A stretch of DNA of 64,000 bases, from the NCBI RefSeq assembly GCF_022846255.1, contig NZ_AP025682.1; one strand, given 5' to 3'. Below are positions 8,674 through 33,853 of this stretch, in pieces; positions within the stretch are counted from its first letter, which is position 1, and each line of letters opens with the position of its first letter. The notes beneath the pieces were generated by a model. The model was not told the origin of the DNA and made no database searches. It saw nothing but the letters and a program-made list of their open reading frames with translations. The position numbers and the translations under genes were made by a program. Source of the DNA: Escherichia coli. Its GTDB lineage: Bacteria > Pseudomonadota > Gammaproteobacteria > Enterobacterales > Enterobacteriaceae.

Positions 8674-9864
8674 TCACAGCACCTTATGCGGGCCAAAGCA
8701 TTCGTAATGAATGTTTTCCTGTTTCACGCCCAGATCCACTAACTGTTTCGCGGCAAACTGCATGAAGCCAACCGGGCCGCAGAGATAGAACTGCATTGTC
8801 GGATCGCTGAACGCACCTTCCAGTTTGCTCAAATCCATCAGACCTTCGCTATCAAACTGACCTTTAGCGCGATCGGCTTCGCTCGGCTGACGATACCAGG
8901 TGTGTGCGGTAAAGCGTGGCAGTGATTGACCCAGTTCCTTAACTTCATCGGCAAAGGCGTGAACATTGCCATTTTCTGCCGCATGGAACCAGTTCACTTG
9001 TGCTGTGTGGCCTGCTTTTGCCAGCGTGTCGAGCATTGCCAGCATTGGCGTTTGACCGACACCGGCAGAGATTAACGTCACTGGTGTGTCATCTGCGACA
9101 GCCATAAAGAAATCACCTGCCGGAGCGACCAGTTTCACGACATCGCCAACATTGGCGTGATTGTGCAGCCAGTTGGATACCTGCCCGCCATCTTCGCGTT
9201 TCACCGCAATACGATAGCCTTTGCCATCCGGTTTGCGAGTCAAAGAGTACTGACGAATTTCCTGATGCGGGAAACCTTCCGGCTTCAGCCAGACGCCGAG
9301 ATATTGCCCCGGACGGTATTCTGCCACTGCGCCACCGTCGACCGGCTCCAGTTCGAAGCTGGTGATAAGCGCGCTGCGCGGTGTTTTAGCCACAATGCGG
9401 AAATCGCGAGTACCTTCCCAACCACCGGCTTTGCTGGCGTTTTCGTTATAGATTTCCGCCTCGCGATTGATAAATACATTAGCCAGGACGCCATAGGCTT
9501 TACCCCACGCGTCCAGCACTTCCTGCCCCGGGCTGAACATTTCGTCCAGCGTTGCCAACAGGTGTTCACCGACGATGTTGTACTGTTCCGGTTTGATCTG
9601 GAAACTGGTGTGCTTCTGCGCGATTTTTTCTACCGCTGGCAGCAGCGCAGGCAGGTTTTCAATATTGCTGGCGTAGGCGGCAATAGCGTTAAACAGGGCT
9701 TCACGTTGATCGCCATTACGCTGGTTACTCATGTTAAAAATTTCTTTGAGTTCTGGGTTATGAGTAAACATACGGTCGTAGAAATGGGCGGTTAACTTTG
9801 GTCCCGTTTCCACCAGTAAAGGGATGGTGGCTTTTACTGTAGCGATGGTTTGAGCGTCAAGCAT
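8674..9864 (-). CDS. hmp: flavohemoglobin / nitric oxide dioxygenase
   Basis: 396 aa; N-terminal globin domain ([17 protein letters not shown]) fused to FAD/NAD(P)H ferredoxin-reductase-like domain. Confidence 0.96.
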
Positions 9865-9883
9865 ATGGTCTTCCTTTTTTTTT

Positions 9884-9915
9884 GCATCTTAATTGATGTA
9901 TCTCAAATGCATCTT
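9884..9915. promoter_or_regulatory. NsrR-type operator in the hmp promoter
   Basis: AT-rich palindrome AAGATGCATTTGAGATACATCAATTAAGATGC (read on the minus strand) 20-50 bp upstream of the hmp start; resembles the NsrR consensus AAGATGyATTT...AAATrCATCTT. Confidence 0.55.
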
Positions 9916-10193
9916 ATAAAAAATAGCCCTGCAATGTAAATGGTTCTTTGGTGTTTTTCAGAAAGAATGTGATGAAGTGAAAAATTTGCATCACAAACCT
10001 GAAAAGAAATCCGTTTCCGGTTGCAAGCTCTTTATTCTCCAAAGCCTTGCGCAGCCTGAAGGTAATCGTTTGCGTAAATTCCTTTGTCAAGACCTGTTAT
10101 CGCACAATGATTCGGTTATACTGTTCGCCGTTGTCCAACAGGACCGCCTATAAAGGCCAAAAATTTTATTGTTAGCTGAGTCAGGAGATGCGG

Positions 10194-11447
10194 ATGTTAA
10201 AGCGTGAAATGAACATTGCCGATTATGATGCCGAACTGTGGCAGGCTATGGAGCAGGAAAAAGTACGTCAGGAAGAGCACATCGAACTGATCGCCTCCGA
10301 AAACTACACCAGCCCGCGCGTAATGCAGGCGCAGGGTTCTCAGCTGACCAACAAATATGCTGAAGGTTATCCGGGCAAACGCTACTACGGCGGTTGCGAG
10401 TATGTTGATATCGTTGAACAACTGGCGATCGATCGTGCGAAAGAACTGTTCGGCGCTGACTACGCTAACGTCCAGCCGCACTCCGGCTCCCAGGCTAACT
10501 TTGCGGTGTACACCGCGCTGCTGGAACCAGGCGATACCGTTCTGGGTATGAACCTGGCGCATGGCGGTCACCTGACTCACGGTTCTCCGGTTAACTTCTC
10601 CGGTAAACTGTATAACATCGTTCCTTACGGTATCGATGCTACCGGGCATATCGACTACGCCGATCTGGAAAAACAAGCCAAAGAACACAAACCGAAAATG
10701 ATTATCGGTGGCTTCTCTGCATATTCCGGCGTGGTGGACTGGGCGAAAATGCGTGAAATCGCTGACAGCATCGGTGCTTACCTGTTCGTTGATATGGCGC
10801 ACGTTGCGGGCCTGGTTGCAGCTGGCGTCTACCCGAACCCGGTTCCTCATGCTCACGTTGTTACTACCACCACTCACAAAACCCTGGCGGGTCCGCGCGG
10901 CGGCCTGATCCTGGCGAAAGGTGGTAGCGAAGAGCTGTACAAAAAACTGAACTCTGCCGTTTTCCCTGGTGGTCAGGGTGGTCCGTTGATGCACGTAATC
11001 GCCGGTAAAGCGGTTGCTCTGAAAGAAGCAATGGAACCTGAGTTCAAAACTTACCAGCAGCAGGTCGCGAAAAACGCCAAAGCGATGGTAGAAGTGTTCC
11101 TCGAACGTGGCTACAAAGTGGTTTCTGGTGGTACTGATAACCACCTGTTCCTGGTTGATCTGGTTGATAAAAACCTGACCGGTAAAGAAGCAGACGCCGC
11201 TCTGGGCCGTGCTAACATCACCGTGAACAAAAACAGCGTACCGAACGATCCGAAGAGCCCGTTTGTGACTTCCGGTATTCGTGTAGGTACTCCGGCGATT
11301 ACCCGTCGTGGCTTTAAAGAAGCCGAAGCGAAAGAACTGGCTGGCTGGATGTGTGACGTGCTGGACAGCATCAATGATGAAGCCGTTATCGAGCGCATCA
11401 AAGGTAAAGTTCTCGACATCTGCGCACGTTACCCGGTTTACGCATAA
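10194..11447 (+). CDS. glyA: serine hydroxymethyltransferase
   Basis: 417 aa from ATG 10194 (AGGAG Shine-Dalgarno 6 nt upstream); PLP-lysine motif [14 protein letters not shown]. Confidence 0.96.
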
Positions 11448-11470
11448 GCGAAACGGTTAATCTGTTGAAA

Positions 11471-11494
11471 AAAGGCTTCCTTCGGGAAGCCTTT
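11471..11494. terminator. bidirectional intrinsic terminator between glyA and yphH
   Basis: AAAGGCTTCC-ttcg-GGAAGCCTTT hairpin flanked by an A-run upstream and T-rich sequence downstream. Confidence 0.6.
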
Positions 11495-11510
11495 CTACGT
11501 TATCGCGCCA

Positions 11511-12704
11511 TCAAATCTGCCGTAACTGCGCCTCAACATACAAATAGCCAATTCCCAGTACCTGTTGTGCGCGGCTTAATTGCCCAAAGCCAATCTGTGT
11601 CGCTTTCACGCTCGGTCCTTCGTCGCGGTCGAACGGGTTAAATCCCGTCTGGCGAATAATGGTATTAAGCCAGTTCTCACCAAAGGCACAACTGCGACCG
11701 TACAACCAAATCTGATTAATATTGAGGATGTTGAGGAAGTTATACAGACTCAAACCAATGGCGTTGGCACTGTGGTCAACCCAACTGGTGATCCACGGTT
11801 CTCCACTCTGCCAGGCAGCGATTAACTGCGCGGTAGTCAGTTTTTCAGGATCAAGCTGAGTATTAACCGGTTGTGATTTTAGCCATACCCGCGCCTGTTT
11901 TTTTAATGCGCTTAACGAGGCGACGGTTTCCAGGCAGCCATAACGTCCGCAGTCGCAGACGACGCCATCCGGATTAACGATGGTGTGACCAATCTGTCCG
12001 CTACCATACAAACTGCCGCGATAAATTTGCTCGTTAATCACGAACGACGAGCCAATGCCGTAATCAACGTTGATCACGCAGAAATCCCGGCCCTGCGAAT
12101 TATTTTGCCATTTCTCCGCCAGCGCCAGCATCACGCAGTCATTATCGACCATCACCCGAATGCCGAGCTTCTCTTCCAGCAGATATTTTACCTCAACCGG
12201 CGTTGTCCACGGCGCTTGCGGCATGGTTTGCGACACGCCGGTCACCGGATCAACCTGACCGTGGATTGCCAGCGCCAGGTTGATGGTACGGTCCGGCCAC
12301 AATTTACGGTGGCGATGCCAGCATTTTTCGATTTCGGACAGCAGCGCCTGCGGCGTCGGTGCATCAATCTGTAAATACTCAAATTCACCTTTCGGACTTA
12401 AACAAGCATTAGCAACCTGACACTCAATACTGGTGGGCGTCACGTTCAGGCACAGCGTCCAGTCACCTTCCGGCGCAATCAGCCATGTACCGCTACTATG
12501 CCCGCGCGTCTGGCTTTCATCGTCGATATTCACCACCCGTTTTTCGCTTTCCAGTTCCTGCAAAATATTACTGACTGCCGGAATCGAAATTTGCGCCAGC
12601 CGGGCCAGTGTCGATTTATTGGCGCGCTTTTGCCGGTACAGCAGTTCCAGAATCACGCATTTGTTATGGTGGCGAATCTGTTGATTATTAATGCAGGCTC
12701 TCAT
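11511..12704 (-). CDS. yphH: ROK-family (NagC/XylR-like) transcriptional regulator
   Basis: N-terminal wHTH (STLARLAQISIPAVSNILQELE) and ROK sugar-kinase-like fold with CxCGxxGC zinc motif (CDCGRYGC); start trimmed to the second ATG. Confidence 0.85.
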   Translation of the reverse strand: MRACINNQQIRHHNKCVILELLYRQKRANKSTLARLAQISIPAVSNILQELESEKRVVNIDDESQTRGHSSGTWLIAPEGDWTLCLNVTPTSIECQVANACLSPKGEFEYLQIDAPTPQALLSEIEKCWHRHRKLWPDRTINLALAIHGQVDPVTGVSQTMPQAPWTTPVEVKYLLEEKLGIRVMVDNDCVMLALAEKWQNNSQGRDFCVINVDYGIGSSFVINEQIYRGSLYGSGQIGHTIVNPDGVVCDCGRYGCLETVASLSALKKQARVWLKSQPVNTQLDPEKLTTAQLIAAWQSGEPWITSWVDHSANAIGLSLYNFLNILNINQIWLYGRSCAFGENWLNTIIRQTGFNPFDRDEGPSVKATQIGFGQLSRAQQVLGIGYLYVEAQLRQI

Positions 12705-12821
12705 CTTCACTAAACCTTGTTTAGTTAATTGCGTGATTATTCCACGAAAACATTGCCAGATTGTTCAATACACTGCCACAAATCTTTTAATTCAGTATGT
12801 CTTGTTAATATTGAGGGTACC

Positions 12822-15800
12822 ATGACTCCAGTAAAAGTGTGGCAAGAGCGCGTTGAGATCCCGACCTATGAAACCGGGCCGCAGGATATACATCCCATGT
12901 TCCTGGAAAATCGCGTTTATCAGGGATCGTCCGGCGCGGTTTATCCCTACGGCGTGACCGATACGCTGAGCGAGCAGAAAACCCTGAAATCCTGGCAGGC
13001 GGTGTGGCTGGAAAACGACTACATCAAAGTGATGATCCTGCCGGAACTGGGCGGTCGGGTGCATCGCGCGTGGGATAAAGTGAAACAGCGCGATTTTGTT
13101 TATCACAATGAAGTCATTAAACCGGCGCTGGTGGGACTGCTGGGGCCGTGGATCTCCGGCGGGATTGAGTTTAACTGGCCGCAACACCATCGCCCGACCA
13201 CCTTTATGCCCGTTGATTTCACCCTCGAAGCCCATGACGACGGCGCACAGACGGTGTGGGTCGGCGAAACGGAGCCGATGCACGGTTTACAGGTGATGAC
13301 AGGTTTCACCCTGCGCCCTGACCGGGCGGCGCTGGAAATCGCCAGTCGCGTCTATAACGGCAACGCCACGCCGCGTCATTTCTTGTGGTGGGCCAACCCG
13401 GCAGTGAAAGGGGGTGAAGGGCATCAGAGCGTTTTCCCACCGGATGTGACTGCGGTGTTTGATCACGGCAAACGGGCCGTCTCCGCTTTCCCCATCGCCA
13501 CCGGCACTTACTACAAAGTGGACTACTCCGCCGGAGTGGACATTTCTCGCTATAAAAATGTGCCCGTTCCAACCTCATATATGGCTGAAAAATCACAGTA
13601 CGATTTTGTTGGCGCGTGGTGTCACGATGAAGATGGTGGTTTGCTACACGTTGCCAACCACCATATTGCGCCAGGTAAAAAACAGTGGAGCTGGGGACAC
13701 AGTGAATTTGGCCAGGCGTGGGATAAGAGCCTGACCGACAATAACGGTCCGTATATCGAACTGATGACCGGTATTTTTGCCGATAACCAGCCTGATTTTA
13801 CCTGGCTTGATGCTTACGAGGAGAAGCGTTTCGAGCAGTATTTCCTGCCTTACCATTCTTTGGGCATGGTGCAAAACGCCTCCCGCGATGCGGTGATTAA
13901 ACTCCAGCGTAGCGAGCGGGGGATTGAGTGGGGGCTGTATGCCATCTCTCCGTTGAACGGATACCGTCTGGCGATCCGCGAAATCGGCAAATGCAACGCG
14001 TTGCTCGATGATGCGGTGGTCCTGACACCAGCGACCGCCATCCAGGGCGTGTTGCACGGTATCAATCCTGAAAGGCTGACCATTGAGCTCTCCGATGCCG
14101 ACGGCAATATTGTACTGAGTTATCAGGAACATCAGCCGCAAGCGTTGCCGTTGCCGGACGTCGCCAAAGCGCCACTGGCAGCACAAGACATTACCAGTAC
14201 AGATGAAGCCTGGTTTATCGGTCAACATCTGGAGCAATATCATCACGCCAGCCGTTCACCGTTCGATTACTATCTGCGCGGCGTGGCGCTGGATCCGCTG
14301 GATTATCGCTGTAATCTGGCGCTGGCAATGCTGGAATATAACCGTGCCGATTTCCCGCAAGCGGTGGTATATGCCAGTCAGGCACTGAAACGCGCACATG
14401 CGCTGAACAAAAATCCGCAGTGCGGACAGGCGAGTTTGATTCGCGCCAGCGCTTACGAACGTCAGGGGCAATATCAACAAGCCGAAGAGGATTTCTGGCG
14501 TGCGGTCTGGAGCGGCAACAGTAAAGCGGGCGGCTATTATGGTCTGGCACGACTGGCGGCGCGTAATGGTAACTTCGACACTGGTCTGGATTTTTGCCAA
14601 CAAAGTCTTCGCGCCTGCCCAACCAATCAGGAAGTGCTTTGCCTGCATAACCTGCTACTGGTGTTAAGTGGTCGTCAGGACAACGCGCGTTTGCAGCGCG
14701 AGAAACTGCTGCGTGATTATCCGCTGAACGCCACTCTGTGGTGGCTGAACTGGTTCGATGGTCGTAGCGAATCAGCCCTCGCGCAGTGGCGAGGTCTTTG
14801 TCAGGGACGCGACGTTAACGCCCTGATGACCGCCGGGCAACTGATTAACTGGGGCATGCCCGCCCTGGCGGCAGATATGCTGAACGCACTGGACTGTCAG
14901 CGCACGCTACCGCTTTACCTGCAAGCCAGTTTGCTACCAAAAGCTGAACGCGGAGAACTGGTCGTAAAAGCTATTGATGCCTTCCCGCAGTTTGTCCGTT
15001 TCCCTAATACGCTGGAAGAAGTGGCGGCGCTGGAGAGTATCGAAGAGTGCTGGTTTGCCCGGCATTTACTGGCCTGCTTCTACTACAACAAGCGTAGCTA
15101 CGGCAAAGCCATTGCCTTATGGCAGCGTTGCGTAGAGATGTCGCCGGAGTTTGCCGACGGCTGGCGCGGGTTGGCGATCCATGCGTGGAATAAGCAGCAC
15201 GATTATGAGCTGGCCGCGCGTTATCTTGATAATGCTTATCAGCTTGCGCCGCAGGATGCACGTCTGCTTTTCGAACGGGATTTGCTGGATAAGTTAAGCG
15301 GTGTCACACCGGAGAAACGACTGGCGCGTCTGGAAAATAATCTGGAAATTGCGCTGAAACGCGACGACATGACCGCAGAACTGCTCAATTTGTGGCATCT
15401 CACTGGTCAGGCAGACAAAGCGGCGGACATTCTCGCCACGCGCAAATTCCACCCGTGGGAAGGTGGGGAAGGGAAGGTCACCAGCCAGTTTATCCTCAAC
15501 CAGTTATTACGCGCCTGGCAGCATCTTGATGCCAGAGAGCCGCAGCAGGCCAGCGAACTGCTTCATGCCGCGCTGCATTATCCGGAGAATTTAAGCGAAG
15601 GCCGTTTACCGGGGCAAACTGACAACGACATCTGGTTCTGGCAGGCAGTATGCGCCAACGTGCAGGGCGATGAAACTGAAGCGACGCGTTGTTTACGTCT
15701 GGCGGCGACCGGCGATCGCACCATTAACATCCACAGTTATTACAACGATCAGCCGGTTGATTATCTCTTCTGGCAAGGAATGGCGCTGCGACTGCTGGGC

Positions 15801-16103
15801 GAACAACACACCGCACAGCAACTGTTTAGTGAAATGAAACAGTGGGCACAAGAGATGGCGAAAACCAGTATCGAAGCGGATTTCTTTGCCGTCTCGCAGC
15901 CTGACTTGTTGTCGCTGTATGGCGATTTACAACAGCAGCATAAAGAAAAATGCCTGATGGTGGCGATGCTGGCGGCCGCGGGATTAGGGGAGGTTGCGCA
16001 CTATGAATCTGCTCGCGCTGAATTGATGGCGATTAATCCAGCCTGGCCGAAAGCGGCATTATTCACCACCGTGATGCCTTTTATTTTTAGCTACGTTCAC
16101 TAA
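12822..16103 (+). CDS. yphG: large uncharacterized TPR-containing protein (DUF5107-type)
   Basis: About 1093-aa ORF from ATG 12822 (GAGGG Shine-Dalgarno); the upstream TTG start of the ORF track was rejected; C-terminal region rich in TPR-like helical repeats. Confidence 0.82.
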   Translation: MTPVKVWQERVEIPTYETGPQDIHPMFLENRVYQGSSGAVYPYGVTDTLSEQKTLKSWQAVWLENDYIKVMILPELGGRVHRAWDKVKQRDFVYHNEVIKPALVGLLGPWISGGIEFNWPQHHRPTTFMPVDFTLEAHDDGAQTVWVGETEPMHGLQVMTGFTLRPDRAALEIASRVYNGNATPRHFLWWANPAVKGGEGHQSVFPPDVTAVFDHGKRAVSAFPIATGTYYKVDYSAGVDISRYKNVPVPTSYMAEKSQYDFVGAWCHDEDGGLLHVANHHIAPGKKQWSWGHSEFGQAWDKSLTDNNGPYIELMTGIFADNQPDFTWLDAYEEKRFEQYFLPYHSLGMVQNASRDAVIKLQRSERGIEWGLYAISPLNGYRLAIREIGKCNALLDDAVVLTPATAIQGVLHGINPERLTIELSDADGNIVLSYQEHQPQALPLPDVAKAPLAAQDITSTDEAWFIGQHLEQYHHASRSPFDYYLRGVALDPLDYRCNLALAMLEYNRADFPQAVVYASQALKRAHALNKNPQCGQASLIRASAYERQGQYQQAEEDFWRAVWSGNSKAGGYYGLARLAARNGNFDTGLDFCQQSLRACPTNQEVLCLHNLLLVLSGRQDNARLQREKLLRDYPLNATLWWLNWFDGRSESALAQWRGLCQGRDVNALMTAGQLINWGMPALAADMLNALDCQRTLPLYLQASLLPKAERGELVVKAIDAFPQFVRFPNTLEEVAALESIEECWFARHLLACFYYNKRSYGKAIALWQRCVEMSPEFADGWRGLAIHAWNKQHDYELAARYLDNAYQLAPQDARLLFERDLLDKLSGVTPEKRLARLENNLEIALKRDDMTAELLNLWHLTGQADKAADILATRKFHPWEGGEGKVTSQFILNQLLRAWQHLDAREPQQASELLHAALHYPENLSEGRLPGQTDNDIWFWQAVCANVQGDETEATRCLRLAATGDRTINIHSYYNDQPVDYLFWQGMALRLLGEQHTAQQLFSEMKQWAQEMAKTSIEADFFAVSQPDLLSLYGDLQQQHKEKCLMVAMLAAAGLGEVAHYESARAELMAINPAWPKAALFTTVMPFIFSYVH

Positions 16104-16199
16104 ACCCTATTAACTGTAATATTTGAGCGGCACGCGCTGCCGCTCACGCTCAAATAATTAAAATAAGCCGTTGTAAATAAAAACCCTACAGGAGGCACT

Positions 16200-17183
16200 A
16201 TGCCTAAAAAAATGACAAGAACCCGTAATTTATTATTAATAGCTACGCTATTGGGTAGCGCACTATTTGCCAGGGCTTCTGATAAAGACATGACTATTGG
16301 CGCAATATACCTTGATACCCAGGGATATTACGCCGGAGTGCGTCAGGGCGTTCAGGATGCGGCAAAAGATTCTTCAGTACAGGTACAGTTAATTGAAACT
16401 AACGCTCAGGGCGATATTTCGAAAGAAAGTACCTTTGTTGATACCCTCGTGGCGCGTAATGTCGATGCCATTATTTTATCGGCAGTGTCTGAAAATGGCA
16501 GTAGCCGTACCGTTCGTCGCGCCAGTGAAGCGGGTATTCCGGTGATTTGCTACAACACCTGTATTAATCAAAAGGGTGTCGATAAATATGTCTCGGCATA
16601 TCTGGTTGGTGACCCGCTGGAATTTGGTAAAAAACTGGGTAACGCAGCCGCCGATTATTTTATTGCCAACAAAATTGACCAGCCGAAAATTGCCGTCATC
16701 AATTGCGAAGCCTTTGAAGTTTGTGTGCAGCGACGTAAAGGATTTGAAGAAGTATTAAAATCCCGCGTTCCCGGCGCGCAAATAGTCGCTAATCAGGAAG
16801 GGACTGTTTTAGATAAAGCGATTTCCGTTGGTGAAAAACTGATTATCTCCACGCCGGATCTCAACGCCATTATGGGGGAATCGGGCGGAGCGACACTCGG
16901 CGCGGTAAAAGCGGTACGTAATCAAAATCAGGCCGGAAAAATTGCTGTTTTCGGTTCGGATATGACCACTGAAATTGCTCAGGAGCTGGAAAACAATCAG
17001 GTGTTGAAAGCGGTGGTGGATATTTCCGGTAAGAAAATGGGCAATGCTGTTTTCGCGCAAACTTTGAAGGTTATCAATAAACAAGCCGACGGTGAAAAAG
17101 TGATTCAGGTGCCTATCGATCTCTATACCAAAACGGAAGACGGTAAACAGTGGCTGGCAACGCACGTTGATGGTCTGCCCTAA
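16200..17183 (+). CDS. yphF: periplasmic sugar-binding protein of an ABC transporter
   Basis: 327 aa with signal peptide (LLLIATLLGSALFARA), periplasmic-binding-protein type I fold. Confidence 0.88.
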   Translation: MPKKMTRTRNLLLIATLLGSALFARASDKDMTIGAIYLDTQGYYAGVRQGVQDAAKDSSVQVQLIETNAQGDISKESTFVDTLVARNVDAIILSAVSENGSSRTVRRASEAGIPVICYNTCINQKGVDKYVSAYLVGDPLEFGKKLGNAAADYFIANKIDQPKIAVINCEAFEVCVQRRKGFEEVLKSRVPGAQIVANQEGTVLDKAISVGEKLIISTPDLNAIMGESGGATLGAVKAVRNQNQAGKIAVFGSDMTTEIAQELENNQVLKAVVDISGKKMGNAVFAQTLKVINKQADGEKVIQVPIDLYTKTEDGKQWLATHVDGLP

Positions 17184-17205
17184 TCGCTGATTCGCAGAGG
17201 TCCCT

Positions 17206-18717
17206 ATGTTCACGGCAACAGAGGCAGTCCCGGTAGCAAAAGTGGTGGCAGGAAATAAGCGTTACCCCGGCGTCGTTGCGCTGGATAACGTTAACTTCAC
17301 GCTCAATAAAGGCGAAGTTCGCGCGCTGTTAGGCAAAAACGGTGCGGGAAAATCGACCCTCATTCGAATGCTGACCGGTAGCGAACGTCCGGATAGCGGT
17401 GATATCTGGATTGGCGAGACGCGACTGGAAGGTGACGAAGCTACGCTGACTCGCCGTGCCGCTGAACTGGGGGTTCGTGCGGTTTATCAGGAGTTAAGTC
17501 TGGTGGAAGGGCTGACAGTGGCGGAAAACCTCTGCCTCGGTCAGTGGCCCCGCCGCAACGGCATGATTGATTACCTGCAAATGGCGCAGGACGCCCAACG
17601 TTGCTTGCAGGCGTTGGGCGTTGACGTTAGTCCTGAACAACTTGTTTCAACACTAAGCCCGGCGCAAAAGCAACTGGTGGAAATTGCGCGGGTGATGAAG
17701 GGCGAGCCGCGCGTGGTCATTCTTGATGAACCCACCAGCTCGCTTGCCAGTGCGGAAGTTGAACTGGTGATCAGCGCGGTGAAAAAGATGTCGGCACTGG
17801 GCGTGGCGGTGATTTATGTCAGCCACCGGATGGAAGAAATTCGCCGCATTGCCTCCTGTGCCACCGTTATGCGCGATGGTCAGGTGGCGGGCGATGTGAT
17901 GCTCGAAAACACCTCTACGCATCATATTGTGTCGCTAATGCTCGGGCGCGATCACGTTGATATTGCGCCGGTTGCCCCTCAGGAAATTATGGATCAGGCC
18001 GTGCTGGAAGTCCGTGCGTTACGCCATAAGCCCAAGCTGGAGGATATCAGCTTTACGCTACGTCGCGGCGAAGTGCTCGGCATTGCTGGCCTGCTGGGGG
18101 CAGGGCGCAGTGAATTGCTGAAGGCGATTGTTGGGCTGGAGACGTATGAACAGGGCGAAATTGTTATCAACGGCGAGAAAATCACGCGCCCCGATTACGG
18201 CGACATGCTGAAACGCGGCATTGGCTATACGCCAGAAAACCGCAAAGAAGCGGGGATCATTCCCTGGCTGGGCGTTGACGAAAATACAGTGCTGACCAAT
18301 CGGCAAAAAATCAGCGCCAACGGTGTGCTGCAATGGTCCACCATCCGCCGCCTGACCGAAGAGGTGATGCAGCGGATGACGGTCAAGGCCGCCAGTAGCG
18401 AAACGCCCATCGGCACGCTTTCTGGCGGCAATCAGCAAAAAGTGGTGATCGGTCGTTGGGTCTATGCCGCCAGCCAGATTTTGTTGCTCGACGAGCCAAC
18501 GCGTGGCGTCGATATCGAAGCCAAACAGCAGATTTACCGTATTGTCCGCGAGCTGGCTGCCGAAGGAAAAAGCGTGGTGTTTATCTCCAGTGAAGTGGAG
18601 GAGTTGCCGCTGGTGTGTGACCGCATCCTGTTATTACAGCACGGCACGTTCTCGCAGGAGTTTCACTCTCCGGTCAATGTGGATGAGCTGATGTCCGCCA
18701 TTCTGTCTGTGCACTGA
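17206..18717 (+). CDS. yphE: sugar ABC transporter ATP-binding protein (tandem ATPase domains)
   Basis: 503 aa with two nucleotide-binding domains (Walker A GKNGAGKST, signature LSGGNQQK). Confidence 0.9.
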   Translation: MFTATEAVPVAKVVAGNKRYPGVVALDNVNFTLNKGEVRALLGKNGAGKSTLIRMLTGSERPDSGDIWIGETRLEGDEATLTRRAAELGVRAVYQELSLVEGLTVAENLCLGQWPRRNGMIDYLQMAQDAQRCLQALGVDVSPEQLVSTLSPAQKQLVEIARVMKGEPRVVILDEPTSSLASAEVELVISAVKKMSALGVAVIYVSHRMEEIRRIASCATVMRDGQVAGDVMLENTSTHHIVSLMLGRDHVDIAPVAPQEIMDQAVLEVRALRHKPKLEDISFTLRRGEVLGIAGLLGAGRSELLKAIVGLETYEQGEIVINGEKITRPDYGDMLKRGIGYTPENRKEAGIIPWLGVDENTVLTNRQKISANGVLQWSTIRRLTEEVMQRMTVKAASSETPIGTLSGGNQQKVVIGRWVYAASQILLLDEPTRGVDIEAKQQIYRIVRELAAEGKSVVFISSEVEELPLVCDRILLLQHGTFSQEFHSPVNVDELMSAILSVH

Positions 18718-18741
18718 TGAATTTTACCGAGGAACCTGAAG

Positions 18742-19740
18742 ATGTCTGCTTCGTCATTACCATTGCCGCAGGGCAAGAGCGTCTCGCTCAAACAATTTGT
18801 CAGTCGCCATATTAATGAGATCGGTTTGCTGGTGGTGATTGCCATTCTTTATCTGGTCTTCTCCCTGAACGCGCCTGGCTTTATCTCATTGAATAACCAG
18901 ATGAACGTGCTGCGCGATGCCGCCACCATCGGGATCGCCGCCTGGGCGATGACGCTGATTATTATCTCCGGTGAAATTGATGTCAGCGTTGGGCCGATGG
19001 TGGCTTTTGTTTCAGTGTGCTTGGCGTTTTTGCTGCAATTTGAAGTTCCGCTGGCGATTGCTTGTCTGCTGGTGTTGCTGTTAGGTGCGCTGATGGGAAC
19101 GCTGGCCGGGGTGCTGCGCGGCGTGTTTAATGTGCCAAGTTTTGTTGCCACGCTGGGTTTATGGAGCGCCCTGCGCGGAATGGGGCTGTTTATGACGAAC
19201 GCCTTGCCAGTGCCAATTAACGAAAACGAAGTGCTGGACTGGCTGGGCGGACAATTTCTCGGTGTGCCGGTATCCGCGCTGATCATGATGGTGTTATTTG
19301 CGCTGTTTGTGTTCATTAGCCGCAAAACCGCCTTCGGGCGCTCGGTTTTTGCTGTTGGCGGTAATGCCACTGCAGCGCAGTTGTGCGGTATTAACGTTCG
19401 TCGGGTACGCATTCTTATTTTTACCCTTTCGGGATTATTAGCGGCGGTGACCGGCATTTTGTTGGCGGCGCGCCTCGGTTCCGGTAACGCAGGTGCCGCA
19501 AACGGTCTGGAGTTTGACGTCATCGCCGCGGTCGTGGTCGGCGGTACGGCGCTTTCCGGTGGTCGCGGCTCGTTGTTCGGTACGCTGCTTGGCGTACTGG
19601 TGATTACGCTAATCGGTAACGGTCTGGTGCTGCTCGGGATTAACTCCTTTTTCCAGCAGGTGGTGCGCGGCGTCATCATCGTGGTGGCGGTGCTGGCGAA
19701 TATCTTGCTGACCCAGCGTAGCAGTAAAGCGAAACGCTAA
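18742..19740 (+). CDS. yphD: sugar ABC transporter permease
   Basis: 332 aa, highly hydrophobic multi-pass membrane protein of the ribose/xylose permease family. Confidence 0.88.
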   Translation: MSASSLPLPQGKSVSLKQFVSRHINEIGLLVVIAILYLVFSLNAPGFISLNNQMNVLRDAATIGIAAWAMTLIIISGEIDVSVGPMVAFVSVCLAFLLQFEVPLAIACLLVLLLGALMGTLAGVLRGVFNVPSFVATLGLWSALRGMGLFMTNALPVPINENEVLDWLGGQFLGVPVSALIMMVLFALFVFISRKTAFGRSVFAVGGNATAAQLCGINVRRVRILIFTLSGLLAAVTGILLAARLGSGNAGAANGLEFDVIAAVVVGGTALSGGRGSLFGTLLGVLVITLIGNGLVLLGINSFFQQVVRGVIIVVAVLANILLTQRSSKAKR

Positions 19741-19805
19741 ACCTTAACGCCCCTGGCGCGGGTGCGGCAGGGATGAAAATTAATCGTATTGTTAATGAGG
19801 GATTT

Positions 19806-20867
19806 ATGAAAACGATGCTGGCAGCTTATTTACCAGGAAATTCGACCGTCGATCTGCGGGAAGTTGCGGTGCCGACGCCGGGTATTAACCAGGTACTGAT
19901 CAAAATGAAATCCTCCGGAATTTGCGGAAGCGATGTCCACTATATCTACCACCAGCACCGCGCTACGGCGGCGGCACCCGATAAACCGTTATACCAGGGA
20001 TTTATCAACGGTCATGAACCGTGCGGGCAAATTGTGGCGATGGGGCAAGGCTGCCGCCATTTTAAAGAGGGCGACCGTGTGCTGGTGTATCATATTTCTG
20101 GCTGTGGTTTTTGCCCGAACTGCCGTCGTGGTTTTCCTATCTCTTGTACTGGCGAAGGAAAAGCGGCTTACGGCTGGCAGCGTGACGGCGGCCATGCTGA
20201 ATACCTGCTGGCGGAAGAAAAAGATCTGATCCTCCTGCCGGATGCACTGAGTTACGAAGATGGTGCGTTTATCAGTTGCGGCGTTGGTACAGCGTATGAA
20301 GGGATTTTGCGCGGCGAAGTTTCCGGCAGTGATAACGTGCTGGTGGTCGGTCTGGGGCCGGTCGGCATGATGGCGATGATGCTGGCAAAAGGTCGCGGTG
20401 CAAAAAGGATCATCGGCGTTGATATGCTGCCGGAACGTCTGGCGATGGCGAAACAGTTAGGAGTGATGGATCACGGCTATTTAGCGACTACCGAAGGTCT
20501 GTCGCAGATAATCGCCGAACTCACTCACGGCGGCGCGGATGTTGCGCTTGATTGTTCCGGTAATGCCGCAGGTCGCTTACTGGCACTGCAATCCACCGCT
20601 GACTGGGGACGCGTGGTTTACATTGGTGAAACCGGAAAAGTGGAGTTCGAGGTTAGCGCCGACCTGATGCACCATCAACGGCGGATTATCGGCTCCTGGG
20701 TGACCAGTTTGTTCCATATGGAAAAATGCGCCCACGATTTAACGGACTGGAAACTGTGGCCGCGTAACGCCATTACCCATCGTTTCTCGCTGGAACAGGC
20801 GGGAGATGCTTATGCACTGATGGCAAGCGGCAAATGTGGGAAAGTTGTGATTAATTTCCCGGATTAA
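19806..20867 (+). CDS. yphC: zinc-dependent medium-chain alcohol/polyol dehydrogenase
   Basis: 353 aa from ATG 19806; GHE zinc-ligand motif, structural-zinc cysteines CGFCPNCRRG, Rossmann GLGPVG. Confidence 0.85.
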   Translation: MKTMLAAYLPGNSTVDLREVAVPTPGINQVLIKMKSSGICGSDVHYIYHQHRATAAAPDKPLYQGFINGHEPCGQIVAMGQGCRHFKEGDRVLVYHISGCGFCPNCRRGFPISCTGEGKAAYGWQRDGGHAEYLLAEEKDLILLPDALSYEDGAFISCGVGTAYEGILRGEVSGSDNVLVVGLGPVGMMAMMLAKGRGAKRIIGVDMLPERLAMAKQLGVMDHGYLATTEGLSQIIAELTHGGADVALDCSGNAAGRLLALQSTADWGRVVYIGETGKVEFEVSADLMHHQRRIIGSWVTSLFHMEKCAHDLTDWKLWPRNAITHRFSLEQAGDAYALMASGKCGKVVINFPD

Positions 20868-20878
20868 GGAGTCTGCGG

Positions 20879-21751
20879 ATGACCATCTATACCTTATCTC
20901 ACGGGCCGCTAAAGCTGGACGTTTCTGATCAGGGCGGCGTAATCGAAGGCTTCTGGCGCGATACGACGCCGCTGCTACGTCCTGGTAAAAAAAGCGGTGT
21001 GGCAACCGATGCCTCTTGTTTTCCGCTGGTGCCGTTTGCAAACCGGGTGAGCGGCAATCGTTTTGTCTGGCAGGGGCGTGAGTATCAACTGCAACCGAAT
21101 GTTGAGTGGGATGCGCACTATCTGCACGGCGACGGCTGGCTGGGGCAGTGGCAATGTGTCTCGCGCAGCGAAGATAGCTTGTGTCTGGTGTATGAACATC
21201 GCAGCGGTGTTTATCACTATCGGGTAAGTCAGGCGTTTCATTTAACGGCAGATACGCTGACGGTGACGCTCTCTGTCACCAATCAAGGGGCAGAGACGCT
21301 GCCATTTGGTACCGGCTGGCATCCTTATTTTCCGTTGTCGCCGCAAACGCGGATTCAGGCACAGGCGAGCGGTTACTGGCTGGAGCGGGAGCAGTGGCTG
21401 GCGGGTGAATTTTGCGAGCAGCTACCGCAGGAACTGGATTTTAACCAGCTCACGCCGTTGCCGCGCCAGTGGGTAAACAATGGTTTTGCCGGATGGAATG
21501 GTAAGGCCCGCATCGAGCAGCCGCAGGAGGGTTATGCCATCATCATGGAAACGACGACACCTGCACCGTGTTATTTCATCTTTGTTTCAGACCCGGCGTT
21601 TGATAAAGGATATGCGTTTGATTTCTTCTGTCTGGAACCGATGAGCCATGCGCCGGATGACCATCATCGCCCGGAAGGTGGTGACCTCATTGCGCTTGCA
21701 CCAGGGGAATCAACAACTTCAGAGATGTCGTTGCGGGTTGCGTTACTGTAA
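20879..21751 (+). CDS. yphB: aldose 1-epimerase (mutarotase) family protein
   Basis: 290 aa; size and sequence consistent with galactose mutarotase-like fold. Confidence 0.8.
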   Translation: MTIYTLSHGPLKLDVSDQGGVIEGFWRDTTPLLRPGKKSGVATDASCFPLVPFANRVSGNRFVWQGREYQLQPNVEWDAHYLHGDGWLGQWQCVSRSEDSLCLVYEHRSGVYHYRVSQAFHLTADTLTVTLSVTNQGAETLPFGTGWHPYFPLSPQTRIQAQASGYWLEREQWLAGEFCEQLPQELDFNQLTPLPRQWVNNGFAGWNGKARIEQPQEGYAIIMETTTPAPCYFIFVSDPAFDKGYAFDFFCLEPMSHAPDDHHRPEGGDLIALAPGESTTSEMSLRVALL

Positions 21752-21760
21752 TTTATAAAA

Positions 21761-21792
21761 TGCCGGATAAGGCGTTCACGCCGCATCCGGCA
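21761..21792. repeat. REP element
   Basis: TGCCGGATAAGGCGTTCACGCCGCATCCGGCA palindrome between convergent yphB and yphA. Confidence 0.5.
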
Positions 21793-21798
21793 TCTTTC

Positions 21799-22221
21799 CT
21801 AACGGCGATCGAGAGAAATCGCCCCCGGCCCGGTAATTGCCAACAGCAGGAATGCGCCAGCGATACTGACATTCTTCCAGAAATTAATCATATTTGGCCC
21901 AACCGCATCGCCGGTCATATCCCAGTAATGGTGACCAATTACCGCTGTACCCAGCGTGTAGAAAATAAACAGCACCGCCAGCGGACGGGTGAAAAAGCCA
22001 AGCACGATTAATATCGCGGCGGGCACTTCCATAACTACCGCAATAATCGCTGCCAGCATCGGCATTGGCGCGCCCAGCGAGGCCATATATTGGACCGTAC
22101 CGTCAAAGCCCATCATTTTGGGAAAACCAAAAATAATGAAAATTAAGACCACGGCGATACGGGCAATTAATAACAAAACGGGGCGTGCAGCACCAAAATC
22201 AAAATAACGTAGTGTGTTCAT
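21799..22221 (-). CDS. yphA: DoxX-family inner-membrane protein
   Basis: 140 aa from the internal ATG (MNTLRYFDF...); four hydrophobic helices. Confidence 0.8.
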
Positions 22222-22317
22222 AACCAATCCCTTTGCAAGATAATGTGATTTAAACGTAATACACACTCTGGCACCTCGCCACGCCCCAGGAGTTGAGATA
22301 TTCGCTAATTGTCCTGG

Positions 22318-23529
<1,212 letters not shown>

Positions 23530-24342
23530 TTAAAGATCCAGCCCAGCCGCTACGTGGCGAATGCCGCGAATCGCTAAACCCGCATCAGCGTTGATCATCA
23601 CACCGCTTAATGCGCGATTATTGCGCCGCGATGCCAACATCACATACGGACCCGTAAAATCCGCCGGTTGCGGGAAAAATTGCAGCGGTAATATGGCGGC
23701 AATTTTCTCCGGCGTCAGAGACTGCATTATCGAGGTTTCACTTTGCCCGAGCGCCTGTGGGCCGCGCAGGTCGCTGGCCATACCACACGGGCCGACGCCA
23801 TTCACCCGCACTTTCGGTGCCAGTTCATAAGCCAGTTGGCGAATAAGTCCGGTTGCGGCATGTTTACTGGCGGTGTACAGCGGGCCACCGCCGCCGGGAT
23901 ACCAGGCGGCATTTGACAGTGTGAAAATCATGCTGCCTTCACTGGCGATTAACGCCGGAGCGCAGGCTTTTGCGCCCAGCAGGTAACCGAGTACGTTGAC
24001 GTTAAACAGCTCGTGGAAGCCGGTTTCGAGCGTCTCTGCGGGAGTATTAACCAGTGAGGCATTGTGATCCCAGATGCCCGCATTGCCGATAAAACAATCC
24101 AGTTTGCCAGAACGAGTCAGGATCTGATCGATCGCGCGTTGATAATCGGTATAACAGGTCACGTTGCCTTCCACCGCCAGAATATGTTCACCAAATCGCT
24201 GACGCAGACTGGCGACTTTCGCCGCCGACAGTTCCAACGTGGCAACCTGCGCGCCTTCTTCGATAAATCGCTCGACCAGCGCCAGGCCTAATCCCGAACC
24301 GCCGCCGGTAATAAAGATGGACTCGTTATGCAGATCGCTCAT
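23530..24342 (-). CDS. hcaB: cis-dihydrodiol dehydrogenase (SDR family)
   Basis: 270 aa short-chain dehydrogenase ([13 protein letters not shown] catalytic motif). Confidence 0.92.
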
Positions 24343-24658
24343 GGCTGCGCCTCCGGTAAGTCGATGAAGATGTCACCACCTTCAACGTGTACTGGATAAG
24401 TGGTTAGCGGATCGGTGGCGGGCAGGCATAATGCTTTCCCCGTTTTCAGGCAAAAACTGGCGGCGTGCAGCGGGCACTCCACCGTGGCGTCATCTTCCAG
24501 ATACCCTTCTGACATCGACGCATTACCATGGCTGCAACGATCGTTAATGGCATAAAACTCGCCGCCTACGTTGAACAGGGCGATGACGGGCGAGGTATCG
24601 ATCCGGAGAGCCTCACCCTCCGGCACATCCGCAACGGGACACGCATAAATTCGATTCA

Positions 24659-24659
<1 letters not shown>
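24339..24659 (-). CDS. hcaC: Rieske-type ferredoxin of the 3-phenylpropionate dioxygenase
   Basis: 106 aa; Rieske ligands CSH...CPLH; 4-nt overlap with hcaB. Confidence 0.92.
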
Positions 24660-33742: not shown

Positions 33743-33853
33743 TAAAAAGAATTCAGAATCAGGCCGGAGTGCCAAACACTCCGTAAACACGGTCGTACAT
33801 CCAGCCGGTAGCCTGGTTCCTTGCATTGAGTGATGTACGGAGTTTATAGAGCA

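Follow-up and report, generated by a model that had tools for sequence, protein, structure and literature searches.

Organization and conservation of the yph locus

The window analyzed here, a stretch of 64,000 nucleotides (64 kb) from an Escherichia coli genome (contig NZ_AP025682.1), carries between positions 11511 and 22221 eight open reading frames, yphH to yphA, all of which were found intact in an ORF check and are present as the same genes with the same lengths in the RefSeq annotation of matching E. coli genomes. On the minus strand, yphH (11511..12704; supported by ORF and RefSeq) encodes a ROK-family transcriptional regulator of 397 amino acids and is divergent from yphG (12822..16103), the gene for a 1093-residue cytoplasmic DUF5107 and TPR protein. 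Downstream of yphG and likewise on the plus strand lie the genes for a periplasmic sugar-binding protein of a CUT2-type ABC importer (yphF, 16200..17183), a tandem-domain sugar ABC ATPase (yphE, 17206..18717), an ABC permease of the RbsC/AraH type (yphD, 18742..19740), a zinc-dependent MDR dehydrogenase (yphC, 19773 or 19806 to 20867, with the Shine-Dalgarno sequence favoring the start at 19806) and an aldose 1-epimerase family protein (yphB, 20879..21751; structure 3NRE). The first-pass annotation had described a carbohydrate-utilization cluster comprising a divergent ROK regulator, a complete sugar ABC transporter, a zinc-dependent polyol dehydrogenase and a mutarotase-like protein. A sugar-type cluster with these elements was confirmed, the importer being of the CUT2 type, as was the view that the substrate is not evident from sequence, none of the eight proteins reaching an NCBIfam equivalog cut-off. 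Its inclusion of yphA (21799..22221, minus strand), which encodes a DoxX-family membrane protein and is the convergent neighbor of yphB, was not upheld. The position of this gene relative to the cluster shifts between genera (Lelliottia has it beside glyA, at the opposite side), and its presence in only 5 of 80 surveyed loci, at varying positions, rules it out as part of the conserved unit. The unit as first delimited was retained in part, with YphH, YphG, a transporter and YphB as its core, the ABC transporter and YphC as lineage-specific components and yphA outside.

Promoter and terminator scans of the locus gave nothing above chance, so we infer co-transcription of yphGFEDCB from gene spacing only. 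The control region contains a conserved non-coding box of 31 bp, TTCACTAAACCTTGTTTAGTTAATTGCGTGA, at 12706..12736, 2-32 nt upstream of the yphH start codon. It was found in all 15 aligned ROK-yphG spacers, from Aeromonas to Escherichia, with ATTGCGTGA invariant within it while the rest of the spacer drifts, and it is unique in the 64-kb window, against a chance expectation of 0 matches; we regard it as a putative operator for YphH. On the plus strand, a -10-like TAnACT box (TACACT, 12769..12774), about 48 nt upstream of the yphG ATG, is a candidate promoter element that was not called by the consensus promoter scanner; in most of the 15 spacers, TACACT, TAAACT, TAGACT or TATACT occurs at the corresponding place in the alignment. 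The 96-nt yphG-yphF spacer contains a nested hairpin (16120..16156, plus strand) with a predicted RNA folding energy of -22.5 kcal/mol (z -2.1), devoid of a T-run and not called by the terminator scan. At the end of the operon, the yphB-yphA spacer carries an element, GCCGGATAAGGCGTTCACGCCGCATCCGGCA (21762..21792), which we take to be a REP sequence, and other strains have an extra 112 bp or IS1397 at this site.

YphH matched the Pfam ROK family (E 6e-32), with a weak MarR/winged-helix HTH match at residues 17-54, and scored below the NagC and Mlc equivalog cut-offs. The ROK zinc motif GH..C.CG..GC is present (GHTIVNPDGVVCDCGRYGC), whereas the DxGxT kinase motif is replaced by LCLNVTPTS. With a ROK domain, an N-terminal HTH and no kinase ATP motif, the protein is by its sequence features of the ROK-family repressor type, and it has been described as the third, uncharacterized ROK repressor of E. 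coli (PMC4288165).

Of 5426 complete E. coli genomes, 5425 carried the yph region and 5419 a full-length yphG. Every yph gene had a dN/dS of 0.005-0.14 in comparisons with E. albertii and Enterobacter, indicating strong purifying selection, with values of 0.03-0.05 for yphH and 0.005-0.03 for yphC. Disruption of yphG, raised earlier as an observation that would undermine the cluster, did not materialize, the gene being a core gene rather than a pseudogene, with a dN/dS of 0.06-0.08 (0.057-0.078) and an alignment free of gaps. A locus that is cryptic or in decay and no longer functions in E. coli would be in keeping with literature searches that turned up neither a growth phenotype nor an inducer, with a nonsense codon at yphG codon 811 in one E. 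coli genome and with the truncated YphG forms included in the protein database. However, the selection and conservation data largely refute this explanation and make it highly improbable. The YphF protein has moreover been detected in vivo, at 3- to 4.6-fold higher levels on levoglucosan than on fructose and together with other sugar transporters (PMC8753852), and in uropathogenic E. coli a yphF mutant was among those selected on the basis of defects in vivo or in vitro. The locus is real and conserved, a chance pattern being excluded, and in E. coli yphGFEDCB constitutes an intact sugar operon of the core genome that diverges from yphH, the gene for the ROK regulator.

The importer and its accompanying enzymes

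YphFED comprises a binding protein with a signal peptide (...LFARA|SDKD), a single-polypeptide tandem ATPase and an RbsC-type permease, as expected of a CUT2 system, and has been termed "putative" in the literature. Its substrate cannot be read from homology because all matches fell below equivalog cut-offs. YphF matched allose, MglB, LsrB, rhizopine and ribose binding proteins weakly and far below the cut-offs, and its best PDB match was 5HSG (E 9e-25). YphE, with a Walker A motif at residue 43 and LSGG at residue 405, matched AraG, XylG, AlsA, MglA and RbsA with E values of 1e-115 to 1e-136, none at equivalog cut-off, the closest being AraG, XylG and AlsA. YphD was closest to RbsC (226 bits in NCBIfam) and AraH (221 bits), both under cut-off.

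YphC possesses the catalytic zinc ligands (Cys, and the His-Glu of GHE), the structural zinc motif and the Rossmann GxGxxG of Zn-dependent medium-chain dehydrogenases, with GHE at residues 80-82, the four-cysteine motif CGFCPNCRRGFPISC at residues 111-125 and GLGPVG at residue 193, followed by GVD. Its best NCBIfam matches, Tdh and IolM, scored about 170 bits, below their cut-offs, and its PDB matches were xylitol, threonine and sorbitol dehydrogenases. YphB corresponds to PDB entry 3nre_A (E 1e-201) and keeps the LHGDGW, GWHPYF and CLEP motifs, and with them the catalytic His, His and Glu of aldose 1-epimerases.

YphG and its relation to the sugar mutarotases

The ATG of yphG is preceded by a GAGGG Shine-Dalgarno sequence; a longer ORF beginning with TTG at 12729 was unsupported. 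No signal peptide was detected in YphG, which is cytoplasmic. Residues 39-324 matched Pfam DUF5107 (PF17128; E 5e-55, model positions 5-281 of 310), and a TPR_16 match was also obtained. The AlphaFold2 model (pLDDT 95.3, pTM 0.93) depicts a single rigid body composed of three parts, all encoded on the plus strand. These are a galactose-mutarotase-fold beta-sandwich corresponding to DUF5107 (residues 1-345, 12822..13856), probably the catalytic or ligand-binding domain, a second, small beta domain (residues 357-435, 13890..14126) and a solenoid of about 630 residues (residues 460-1092, 14199..16097) with about 33 helices in about 16 TPR-like hairpins, which match TPR profiles and form a superhelix. 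Fold comparisons returned aldose 1-epimerases and TPR superhelices. The earlier characterization of YphG as a TPR protein is misplaced in emphasis, since nearly all invariant residues lie in the N-terminal mutarotase-fold domain, the solenoid contributing an invariant R782 and a conserved FHPWEGGEG loop (residues 876-884). Nor did the glycoside-hydrolase or lyase domain suggested for inspection emerge, as YphG had no sequence or profile match to the catalytic domains of described glycoside-hydrolase and polysaccharide-lyase families. The catalytic or core domain of the GH174 endo-fucanase and of GH186 (OpgD/OpgG) is also a large beta-sandwich, but no sequence similarity to YphG was found for either family, and both are devoid of a TPR solenoid.

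The likeness to aldose 1-epimerases (PF01263; GalM and YphB) is one of fold rather than of direct sequence similarity, as YphG had no Aldose_epim match even at E ≤ 10 and its direct HHalign comparisons with the GalM and YphB alignments were not significant. A sequence link can be drawn only transitively, via DUF4432-like proteins ("aldose epimerase family", from Paenibacillus and others), in which Pfam PF01263, PF14486 and PF17128 matches occur together and which aligned both with YphG (HHalign probability 97%, E 7e-11) and with YphB (probability 91.5%). These single-domain proteins of about 310 amino acids, the nearest sequence relatives of the YphG N-terminal domain outside DUF5107, are encoded directly downstream of YphG homologues and keep the mutarotase His and Glu motifs (invariant H95, H159 and E276). 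The acid histidine of YphB (in GWHPYF) and of the DUF4432-like family (H159) aligned, with a probability of 96-98%, with N192 of YphG, which lies in the WWANPA motif and is conserved as Asn in at least 90% of the 73 family members compared; for this reason YphG is unlikely to be a classical mutarotase. The second His motif of mutarotases (DHGE or LHGDGW) falls in a segment absent from YphG. The local alignment stops before the LEP motif with its Glu base. The invariant E313 of YphG aligns with the strand ahead of this motif, and residues 321-325 (DNQPD) may be the equivalent of the base.

YphG also differs from GalM and YphB in having its own set of invariant polar residues, clustered in the N-terminal domain, and in being fused to the second beta domain and the TPR solenoid. 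E116, H122, H123, R124, N179, H215, E313 and D325, together with R782 and E880 of the solenoid, would form its active site, and the conserved residues presumably share one pocket. One of the closest known proteins, PDB entry 5CD6 (BDI_1685 of Parabacteroides distasonis, a structural-genomics "TPR-domain containing protein"), is half as long, has a much shorter solenoid and is only 17-21% identical; its entry title gives no function, and searches by PDB or locus code returned no paper. Literature searches likewise found no biochemical or genetic data on any YphG family member. YphG is best described as a remodeled sugar-mutarotase-fold protein from a large family without a characterized member, and is probably an enzyme.

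Gene neighborhoods and the proposed function of YphG

Neighborhoods of yphG were surveyed in 80 genomes, with 15 gamma-proteobacterial and 65 other loci. A monosaccharide-type transporter was encoded within 5 kb at 12/15 and 37/65 loci, respectively, an AraC or ROK regulator within 3 kb at 14/15 and 39/65, and a mutarotase-like partner at 11/15 and 11/65, with a YphB-type gene within 5 kb at 11 of the 15 gamma-proteobacterial loci. The conserved unit consists of a regulator, YphG, a monosaccharide-type transporter and a mutarotase-family partner. The transporter of most relatives is an XylE-like sugar-porter MFS protein, which in E. coli is replaced by the ABC system YphFED, arriving together with the dehydrogenase YphC. 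No kinase family occurred among the recurrent neighbor clusters in the 80 genomes.

Outside the gamma-proteobacteria, YphG is found beside beta- or alpha-galactosidase-like genes (GH2_20-like, GH35-like, GH97 and GH36-like). A galactosidase-type glycoside hydrolase lay within 10 kb at 38 of the 65 loci, and neither it nor a transporter was nearby at 12, while this association was absent from all but two gamma-proteobacterial loci. Citrobacter FP75 has MelB and a GH36-like enzyme in place of the sugar porter, and Photobacterium has a MelB homologue with a GH2. The neighboring GH2 had as its nearest matches the BT4151 exo-beta-1,4-galactosidase model and PDB 8U01, of subfamily GH2_20, which has beta-galactosidase activity. 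In Firmicutes, YphG shares compact operons, in which stop and start codons overlap, with exo-glycosidases of GH2 and GH35 that are cytoplasmic, in what looks like a glycosidase set acting on one glycan; translational coupling to GH2 occurs in some Firmicutes and in Bifidobacterium. A distant subset of the family carries signal peptides, and a DUF5107 orthogroup marks phagotrophic stramenopiles together with digestive enzymes (PMC8163842). These secreted homologues and the phagotroph orthogroup indicate that YphG would need no cytoplasmic cofactor.

With the other CUT2 ABC operons of E. coli (rbs, als, xyl, mgl and ytf), yph has in common the logic of a regulator, a binding-protein-dependent importer and cytoplasmic enzymes. 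The yih sulfoquinovose cluster pairs its pathway enzyme with a private mutarotase, YihR, as does yph (PMC5902678). In contrast to classical sugar operons, yph lacks genes for a kinase, isomerase or aldolase belonging to any known family, and its presumed central enzyme belongs to a family without a characterized member.

We tentatively propose, with a probability of roughly 0.4, that YphG is the cofactor-independent, glycosidase-like key enzyme of a pathway for a small galactose-related sugar. YphG could instead be an anomer-specific isomerase or epimerase that converts an uncommon imported monosaccharide into a housekeeping hexose, with YphB supplying the anomer and no glycosidic bond being broken. 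CUT2 ABC systems and bacterial sugar porters are normally monosaccharide carriers, and the transporter types found here suit an isomerase at least as well as they suit a glycosidase. A mutarotase partner would be equally expected for an anomer-specific isomerase, as in the pairs RhaM/RhaA and FucU/FucI, which weakens the argument for a glycosidase. Minimal units of regulator, MFS transporter and YphG contain no other enzyme and a kinase is never linked, so the product of YphG must be a common sugar. Furthermore, the mutarotase fold already opens sugar rings, and the conserved His122, His123 and His215 with Glu residues resemble the acid/base sets by which cofactor-free sugar epimerases and isomerases operate. 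Nevertheless, the secreted homologues and the association with phagotroph digestive enzymes fit a hydrolase better, the tight Firmicutes operons with exo-glycosidases also speak against an isomerase, and the mutarotase fold occurs in no known isomerase, which leaves this function possible though rather unlikely.

We consider it improbable that YphG is an outsized mutarotase, or a pyranose/furanose ring-form isomerase, for the imported sugar. The sequence link to the aldose-epimerase superfamily and, as for GalM, the occurrence alongside sugar importers and enzymes that release galactose would suit such a role, but a conserved Asn stands where the acid histidine is expected, the segment bearing the second His motif is missing, a canonical mutarotase (YphB, GalM or DUF4432-like) often adjoins the YphG gene and would make it redundant, and the extra 750 residues, conserved in length across phyla, are hard to explain by mutarotation alone. 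Similarly doubtful is a non-catalytic sensor or scaffold whose mutarotase-like domain binds the sugar and whose solenoid interacts with regulator, transporter or partner enzymes. Protein-protein contacts are the usual role of TPR solenoids, the canonical catalytic His is lost, a regulator gene recurs next to yphG at the frequencies given by the survey, and the coupling to GH2 would also be compatible with a scaffold. Against this, the regulator (ROK or AraC) and the transporter (ABC or MFS) vary while the length and invariant residues of YphG stay constant, those residues are catalytic in type and concentrated in a sugar-binding fold, a pTM of 0.93 argues for one rigid body with no free interaction arm, and secreted homologues exist.

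If YphG is glycosidase-like, YphFED (or an MFS transporter in other genera) would import a small galactose-related sugar, either a monosaccharide-sized glycoside or a limit product of beta- or alpha-galactosidases, which YphG would cleave with release of one anomer of a common hexose. YphB would then equilibrate the anomers of this hexose for the housekeeping kinases, and YphC, acquired with the ABC transporter, may add a branch for a related polyol or keto form. YphH, bound to the conserved 31-bp box, would repress the operon until the sugar is present.

Organization and conservation of the yph locus

About one third of E. coli genes still lack an assigned function, and the yph cluster has been annotated in this species for decades as y-genes. 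The ORF map drawn for window positions 9500-24500 and the RefSeq annotation, with the same eight genes and lengths, confirmed the cluster that the first-pass annotation had placed at 11511-22221: yphH (11511-12704, minus strand), then on the plus strand yphG (12822-16103, 1093 aa), yphF (16200-17183), yphE (17206-18717), yphD (18742-19740), yphC (19773 or 19806 to 20867) and yphB (20879-21751), and finally yphA (21799-22221, minus strand). The region is flanked upstream by glyA and downstream by ORFs sized like HcaD, HcaB and HcaC, and its YphG is 100% identical to BDH32415.1 of E. coli TRECRb50. A longer ORF for yphG, starting at a TTG (12729), was rejected because a GAGGG Shine-Dalgarno sequence precedes the ATG at 12822; all 73 homologues compared (73/73) begin 1-6 residues from MTPVKVW or carry unrelated extensions ahead of it. 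The start of yphC is ambiguous between the RefSeq position 19773 (364 aa, poor Shine-Dalgarno) and an ATG at 19806 (353 aa, GAGGG Shine-Dalgarno), the latter giving the ORF length found in strain RIT691 and Budvicia diplopodorum.

The spacers from yphF through yphB measure 11-32 nt and that between yphG and yphF 96 nt, with a recognisable Shine-Dalgarno sequence before most genes. Scans for consensus promoters and terminators returned counts at or near the shuffled expectation and no call at the expected sites, so that it is spacing and orientation that suggest co-transcription of the yph genes. The yphG-yphF spacer holds a nested inverted repeat at 16120-16156, TATTTGAGCG GCACGCGCTGCCGCTCA CGCTCAAATA (-22.5 kcal/mol, z -2.1), which is not followed by a T-run and could stabilise the mRNA, or serve as a site of its processing, between yphG and the transporter genes. 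The yphB-yphA spacer contains a palindromic element at 21762-21792, GCCGGATAAGGCGTTCACGCCGCATCCGGCA, which we take to be REP-like; at this site strain A3 carries 112 bp extra and FDAARGOS_144 an IS1397, with flanking genes intact in both. Beyond yphA, from 22318-24659 onward, minus-strand ORFs of 400, 270 and 106 aa have the sizes of HcaD, HcaB and HcaC, and hcaT directly adjoins yphA in the best-matching strains A3, L1PEag1 and FDAARGOS_144; next to this locus, the hca phenylpropionate dioxygenase genes are thus polymorphic for presence or absence. Rfam families had no match within the yph locus and gathering-score matches elsewhere in the window, namely GlmY (4359-4506), the iscRS stability element (33743-33852), ryfA (41108-41412), IS128 (41548-41724) and sroE (54518-54609).

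Of 5426 complete E. coli genomes, 5425 contained the yph region by Megablast, on the chromosome every time, and yphG reached at least 80% coverage in 5419 of the 5426, as a single ungapped 3282-nt piece in all listed full-length rows (24 of the 25 rows of a spread sample). Relative to E. albertii and Enterobacter sp. BIGb0383, dN/dS was 0.005-0.14 for every yph gene and 0.057-0.078 for yphG, over 1093 codons with zero gaps. The idea that yphG might be a pseudogene or frame-disrupted in related genomes, which the first-pass annotation had given as a refuting condition, was rejected on the basis of this purifying selection and of the near-universal full-length presence of the gene. The operon is conserved and under selection, its genes being functional and not decaying, and a cryptic remnant is a less likely reading of the cluster. 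Rare disruptions of yphG comprise truncated forms in the protein database and a nonsense mutation at codon 811 in one genome. The latter belongs to E. coli SCPM-O-B-8794 (L010:2379-5657), the E. coli entry of the one-genome-per-species collection, where yphG is a strain-level pseudogene of an otherwise core gene. Synonymous divergence from strain L1PEag1 varied about four-fold among neighbouring genes (dS of 0.03 for yphG and yphD, 0.115 for yphH) and the E. coli alleles of yphG formed two classes (99% or above in 605 genomes, 95-99% in 4797), which suggests a recombination mosaic.

Architecture and relatives of YphG

At the system level, yph is an ordinary repressor-controlled, binding-protein-dependent sugar operon; what falls outside known kinds is its central protein YphG, of family DUF5107. 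YphG lacks a signal peptide and matched DUF5107 at aa 39-324 (E 5e-55), with weak TPR repeats within aa 499-954. Its family comprises at least 1147 cluster representatives (50% identity, E <= 1e-30), with at least 598 matches in the one-genome-per-species collection, and includes members from Bacteroidota, Firmicutes, Bifidobacterium and Vibrionaceae, many of them full-length (about 1100 aa) at identities down to 28%. Distant full-length relatives (28-31% identity) carry N-terminal signal or lipoprotein-like peptides, and shorter DUF5107 proteins of 300-730 aa also exist, one of them from the stramenopile Aureoumbra; cytoplasmic, secreted and eukaryotic forms thus occur within the family.

In the 73-sequence alignment, the invariant or near-invariant residues lay mostly within the first 345 positions (G77, G78, R79, K100, W110, S112, G113, G114, E116, N118, P120, H122, H123, R124, N179, W190, N192, H215, E313, N322, Q323, P324 and D325), the helical part contributing few (R782, E818 and an F876-E880-G881 loop with consensus FHPWEGGEG). 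AlphaFold2 produced from this alignment a very confident single-body model (pLDDT 95.3, pTM 0.93) in which aa 5-345 form one beta domain and aa 357-435 another, and about 33 helices span aa 460-1092. The earlier description of YphG as a giant TPR protein thus captured the solenoid, which is present, but not the centre of conservation, which is the mutarotase-fold N-domain. The search for glycoside-hydrolase or lyase domains proposed at that stage matched no described family by sequence, and a fold search of AFDB50 with YphG returned in every case an unannotated 'DUF5107 domain-containing protein'. Our literature searches found no functional study of the yph genes, DUF5107 (PF17128), BDI_1685/5CD6, DUF4432 or DUF4380, and those for 5CD6, b2549 and P76585 gave noise alone.

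When the YphG N-domain was compared by profile with alignments of GalM or YphB directly, the match stayed below significance. The relationship emerged through a bridge family of DUF4432-like proteins of about 310 aa, whose genes in Paenibacillus and others immediately follow those for YphG homologues. This family matched the YphG N-domain at 96-98% probability (E 7e-11 with a 42-sequence alignment) and YphB at 90-92%, and its members carry precomputed PF01263 and PF14486 (DUF4432), sometimes with PF17128, all at once. The acid-histidine position of mutarotases (GWHPYF in YphB, invariant H159 in the bridge family) aligned with YphG N192 (WWANPA), a position occupied by Asn in at least 90% of the family, and the second-histidine motif (LHGDGW / PDHGEVW) falls in a stretch missing from YphG; YphB retains all three mutarotase motifs. 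The fold has thus been kept and at least one defining catalytic residue lost, and a different invariant polar set appears to have taken over. YphG is related to mutarotases, whose fold it shares, but would not be a classical member, since it lacks their catalytic histidine, and a plain mutarotase activity is less likely for it. By model and alignment, YphG is a rigid protein of mutarotase fold and TPR solenoid whose conserved site has been remodelled.

Partner proteins and gene neighbourhoods

The 117-nt yphH-yphG spacer contains a 31-bp box at 12706-12736, TTCACTAAACCTTGTTTAGTTAATTGCGTGA, which starts 2 nt upstream of the yphH start codon and occurs once in the 64-kb window. The box was found in all 15 aligned spacers (15/15), from Aeromonas to Escherichia, with ATTGCGTGA invariant and its surroundings drifting, and a TAnACT box recurred across spacers about 48 nt upstream of the yphG ATG. 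We consider the 31-bp box a putative YphH operator; it does not look like NagC/Mlc or CRP sites. A CRP reading of ATTGCGTGA, centred at about -41.5 from the TAnACT box, was not called because the right half-site is neither CRP-like nor conserved among genera. In YphH the ROK Zn motif is accompanied by an N-terminal wHTH and the kinase phosphate-binding motif is missing; the protein has been termed the third, uncharacterised ROK repressor of E. coli (PMC4288165).

None of the eight yph proteins attained an NCBIfam equivalog cut-off, in agreement with the initial view that the substrate is not evident from sequence. YphF carries a signal peptide and weakly resembles binding proteins for allose, galactose, AI-2, rhizopine and ribose; its best PDB match was an unliganded structural-genomics entry, and homology gave no clue to its substrate. 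YphE, a tandem ATPase, comes closest to AraG, XylG and AlsA, and YphD resembles RbsC and AraH, all three transporter proteins remaining under equivalog cut-offs. YphC is a bona fide Zn-dependent MDR dehydrogenase (GHE, Cys4 motif) in which GLGPVG followed by GVD suggests NAD, its nearest relatives being threonine, scyllo-inosose, xylitol and sorbitol dehydrogenases; YphB is an aldose 1-epimerase with a solved structure (3NRE). The YphF protein has been detected at 3-4.6-fold higher levels on levoglucosan than on fructose, with XylF, MalE, YtfQ, MglA and UgpB rising alongside (PMC8753852); because these climb too, we set aside levoglucosan-specific induction and read the rise as general catabolite derepression. 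The ABC mutants of uropathogenic E. coli that were pursued further for fitness defects included one in yphF (PMC11032443).

A divergent ROK gene followed by YphG, a sugar-porter MFS and a YphB-type epimerase was found in Aeromonas, Serratia, Lelliottia, a record labelled Martelella alba, Citrobacter, Cedecea, Hafnia and Budvicia aquatica, and the same genes in the order YphG, epimerase, MFS in Rahnella; the ABC transporter and YphC were absent from the unit in all these genera. YphG-FED-C-B followed by the MFS gene occurred in Enterobacter BIGb0383, Enterobacteriaceae RIT691 and B. diplopodorum, and FED-C-B without MFS in Escherichia. The ABC genes and yphC thus behave like a single inserted module, E. 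coli having lost the original MFS, and the clusters with both transporters look like intermediates between the MFS-only and the Escherichia ABC-only forms. Given its co-insertion, the module plausibly, if speculatively, adds uptake and oxidation of a related polyol. The gene yphA, counted as a cluster member in the first-pass annotation, lies on the opposite side of the cluster in Lelliottia and is missing at most loci, and is therefore a neighbour. In Photobacterium indicum, a NanA-like lyase, ROK kinase, enolase-family dehydratase and TRAP transporter were dismissed as an unrelated adjacent cluster.

Among the 65 loci from Bacteroidota, Firmicutes and Bifidobacterium, an AraC-family regulator lay within 5 kb of the yphG homologue in 42, a sugar porter or CUT2 ABC transporter within 5 kb in 37 and a galactosidase-type glycosidase within 10 kb in 38; a mutarotase-like partner (GalM or DUF4432-like) was present in 11. 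No kinase, aldolase or other pathway enzyme figured among the recurrent neighbour families. The conserved core thus consists of a regulator, YphG, a monosaccharide-type importer and a mutarotase-family partner, and outside gamma-proteobacteria YphG is associated with galactose-releasing enzymes.

The neighbouring GH2 enzyme closely resembles the BT4151 exo-beta-1,4-galactosidase model as well as PDB 8U01, of subfamily GH2_20 with beta-galactosidase activity (PMC12243196). A neighbour of 700-780 aa matched NCBIfam GH35 weakly in its N-terminal region (E 2e-9, about 60 residues), the rest of its GH35-like assignment being our reading of the sequence; further neighbours resemble GH97 retaining alpha-galactosidases and GH36 enzymes. 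The Bacteroidota versions of these glycosidases have signal peptides, which the Firmicutes versions and the co-located YphG homologues (about 40% identity) lack. In Citrobacter FP75, MelB and a GH36-like enzyme replace the sugar porter, and in Photobacterium pectinilyticum ROK and YphG are joined by a MelB homologue and a GH2. Zobellia, Maribacter and other marine Flavobacteriia showed a recurrent block of MFS, secreted SGNH-like esterase (called by sequence reading, with no library match), GH2 and YphG (loci L035, L043, L044, L049, L079, L082 and L086), flanked at most of these loci by sulfatases and at several by a second GH2, which looks like a locus for sulfated or acetylated galactan. In Bifidobacterium choladohabitans (L041:9989-16029) and Bacillus solitudinis (L067:9932-16118), the yphG homologue overlaps the next GH2 gene by 4-8 nt, which suggests translational coupling and possibly a physical complex.

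Proposed activity of YphG

We propose that YphG would be the catalytic step that turns an imported small sugar into a substrate for housekeeping metabolism. It would work without a cytoplasmic cofactor, since a distant branch of the family is secreted and since a DUF5107 orthogroup marks phagotrophic stramenopiles, together with digestive enzymes (PMC8163842). The favoured reaction would be a glycosidase-like hydrolysis of a monosaccharide-sized, galactose-related glycoside, possibly one left as a limit product by the exo-galactosidases nearby, one with a small aglycone or an intramolecular one. Hydrolysis is favoured by the secreted relatives, by the exo-glycosidases sharing operons with YphG, by the loss of the mutarotase acid histidine, by two invariant or near-invariant glutamates and by a private mutarotase partner, as is likewise found in the sulfoquinovose system. 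It is also favoured by the beta-sandwich-plus-solenoid build, typical of glycan-active enzymes.

The main rival is an anomer-specific isomerisation or epimerisation of a rare monosaccharide, which agrees with the transporter types at least as well as hydrolysis does; the operon-sharing exo-glycosidases and secreted relatives speak for hydrolysis. A non-catalytic sensor, for a protein whose conserved residues cluster in a mutarotase-fold domain, is less likely. Hydrolysis would in its fullest form make YphG/DUF5107 the founders of a new carbohydrate-active enzyme class, a mutarotase fold without the acid histidine, clamped by a TPR solenoid and hydrolysing without cofactor glycosides the size of a monosaccharide, such as limit galactosides or intramolecular (anhydro) forms, a tentative proposal to which we assign a probability of roughly 0.3.

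The six-gene yph operon is present in essentially all E. coli genomes, and the family of its central protein has no characterised member. For what was a giant TPR protein of unknown function there is now a specific, testable enzyme hypothesis that names residues, partners, a candidate operator and a candidate class of substrates, and the E. coli protein itself is tractable and has a high-confidence model. The YphG family adjoins galactosidases and sugar importers in polysaccharide-utilisation loci, and because of that neighbourhood its activity is probably a missing step in finishing galactose-containing glycans in gut, soil and marine bacteria. Should YphG prove to be an enzyme on a remodelled mutarotase fold, a new catalytic family would be added; the proposed class, if real, would be encoded, beside galactosidases and sugar porters, by the E. 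coli K-12 core genome as well as by hundreds of species from gut, soil and marine habitats.
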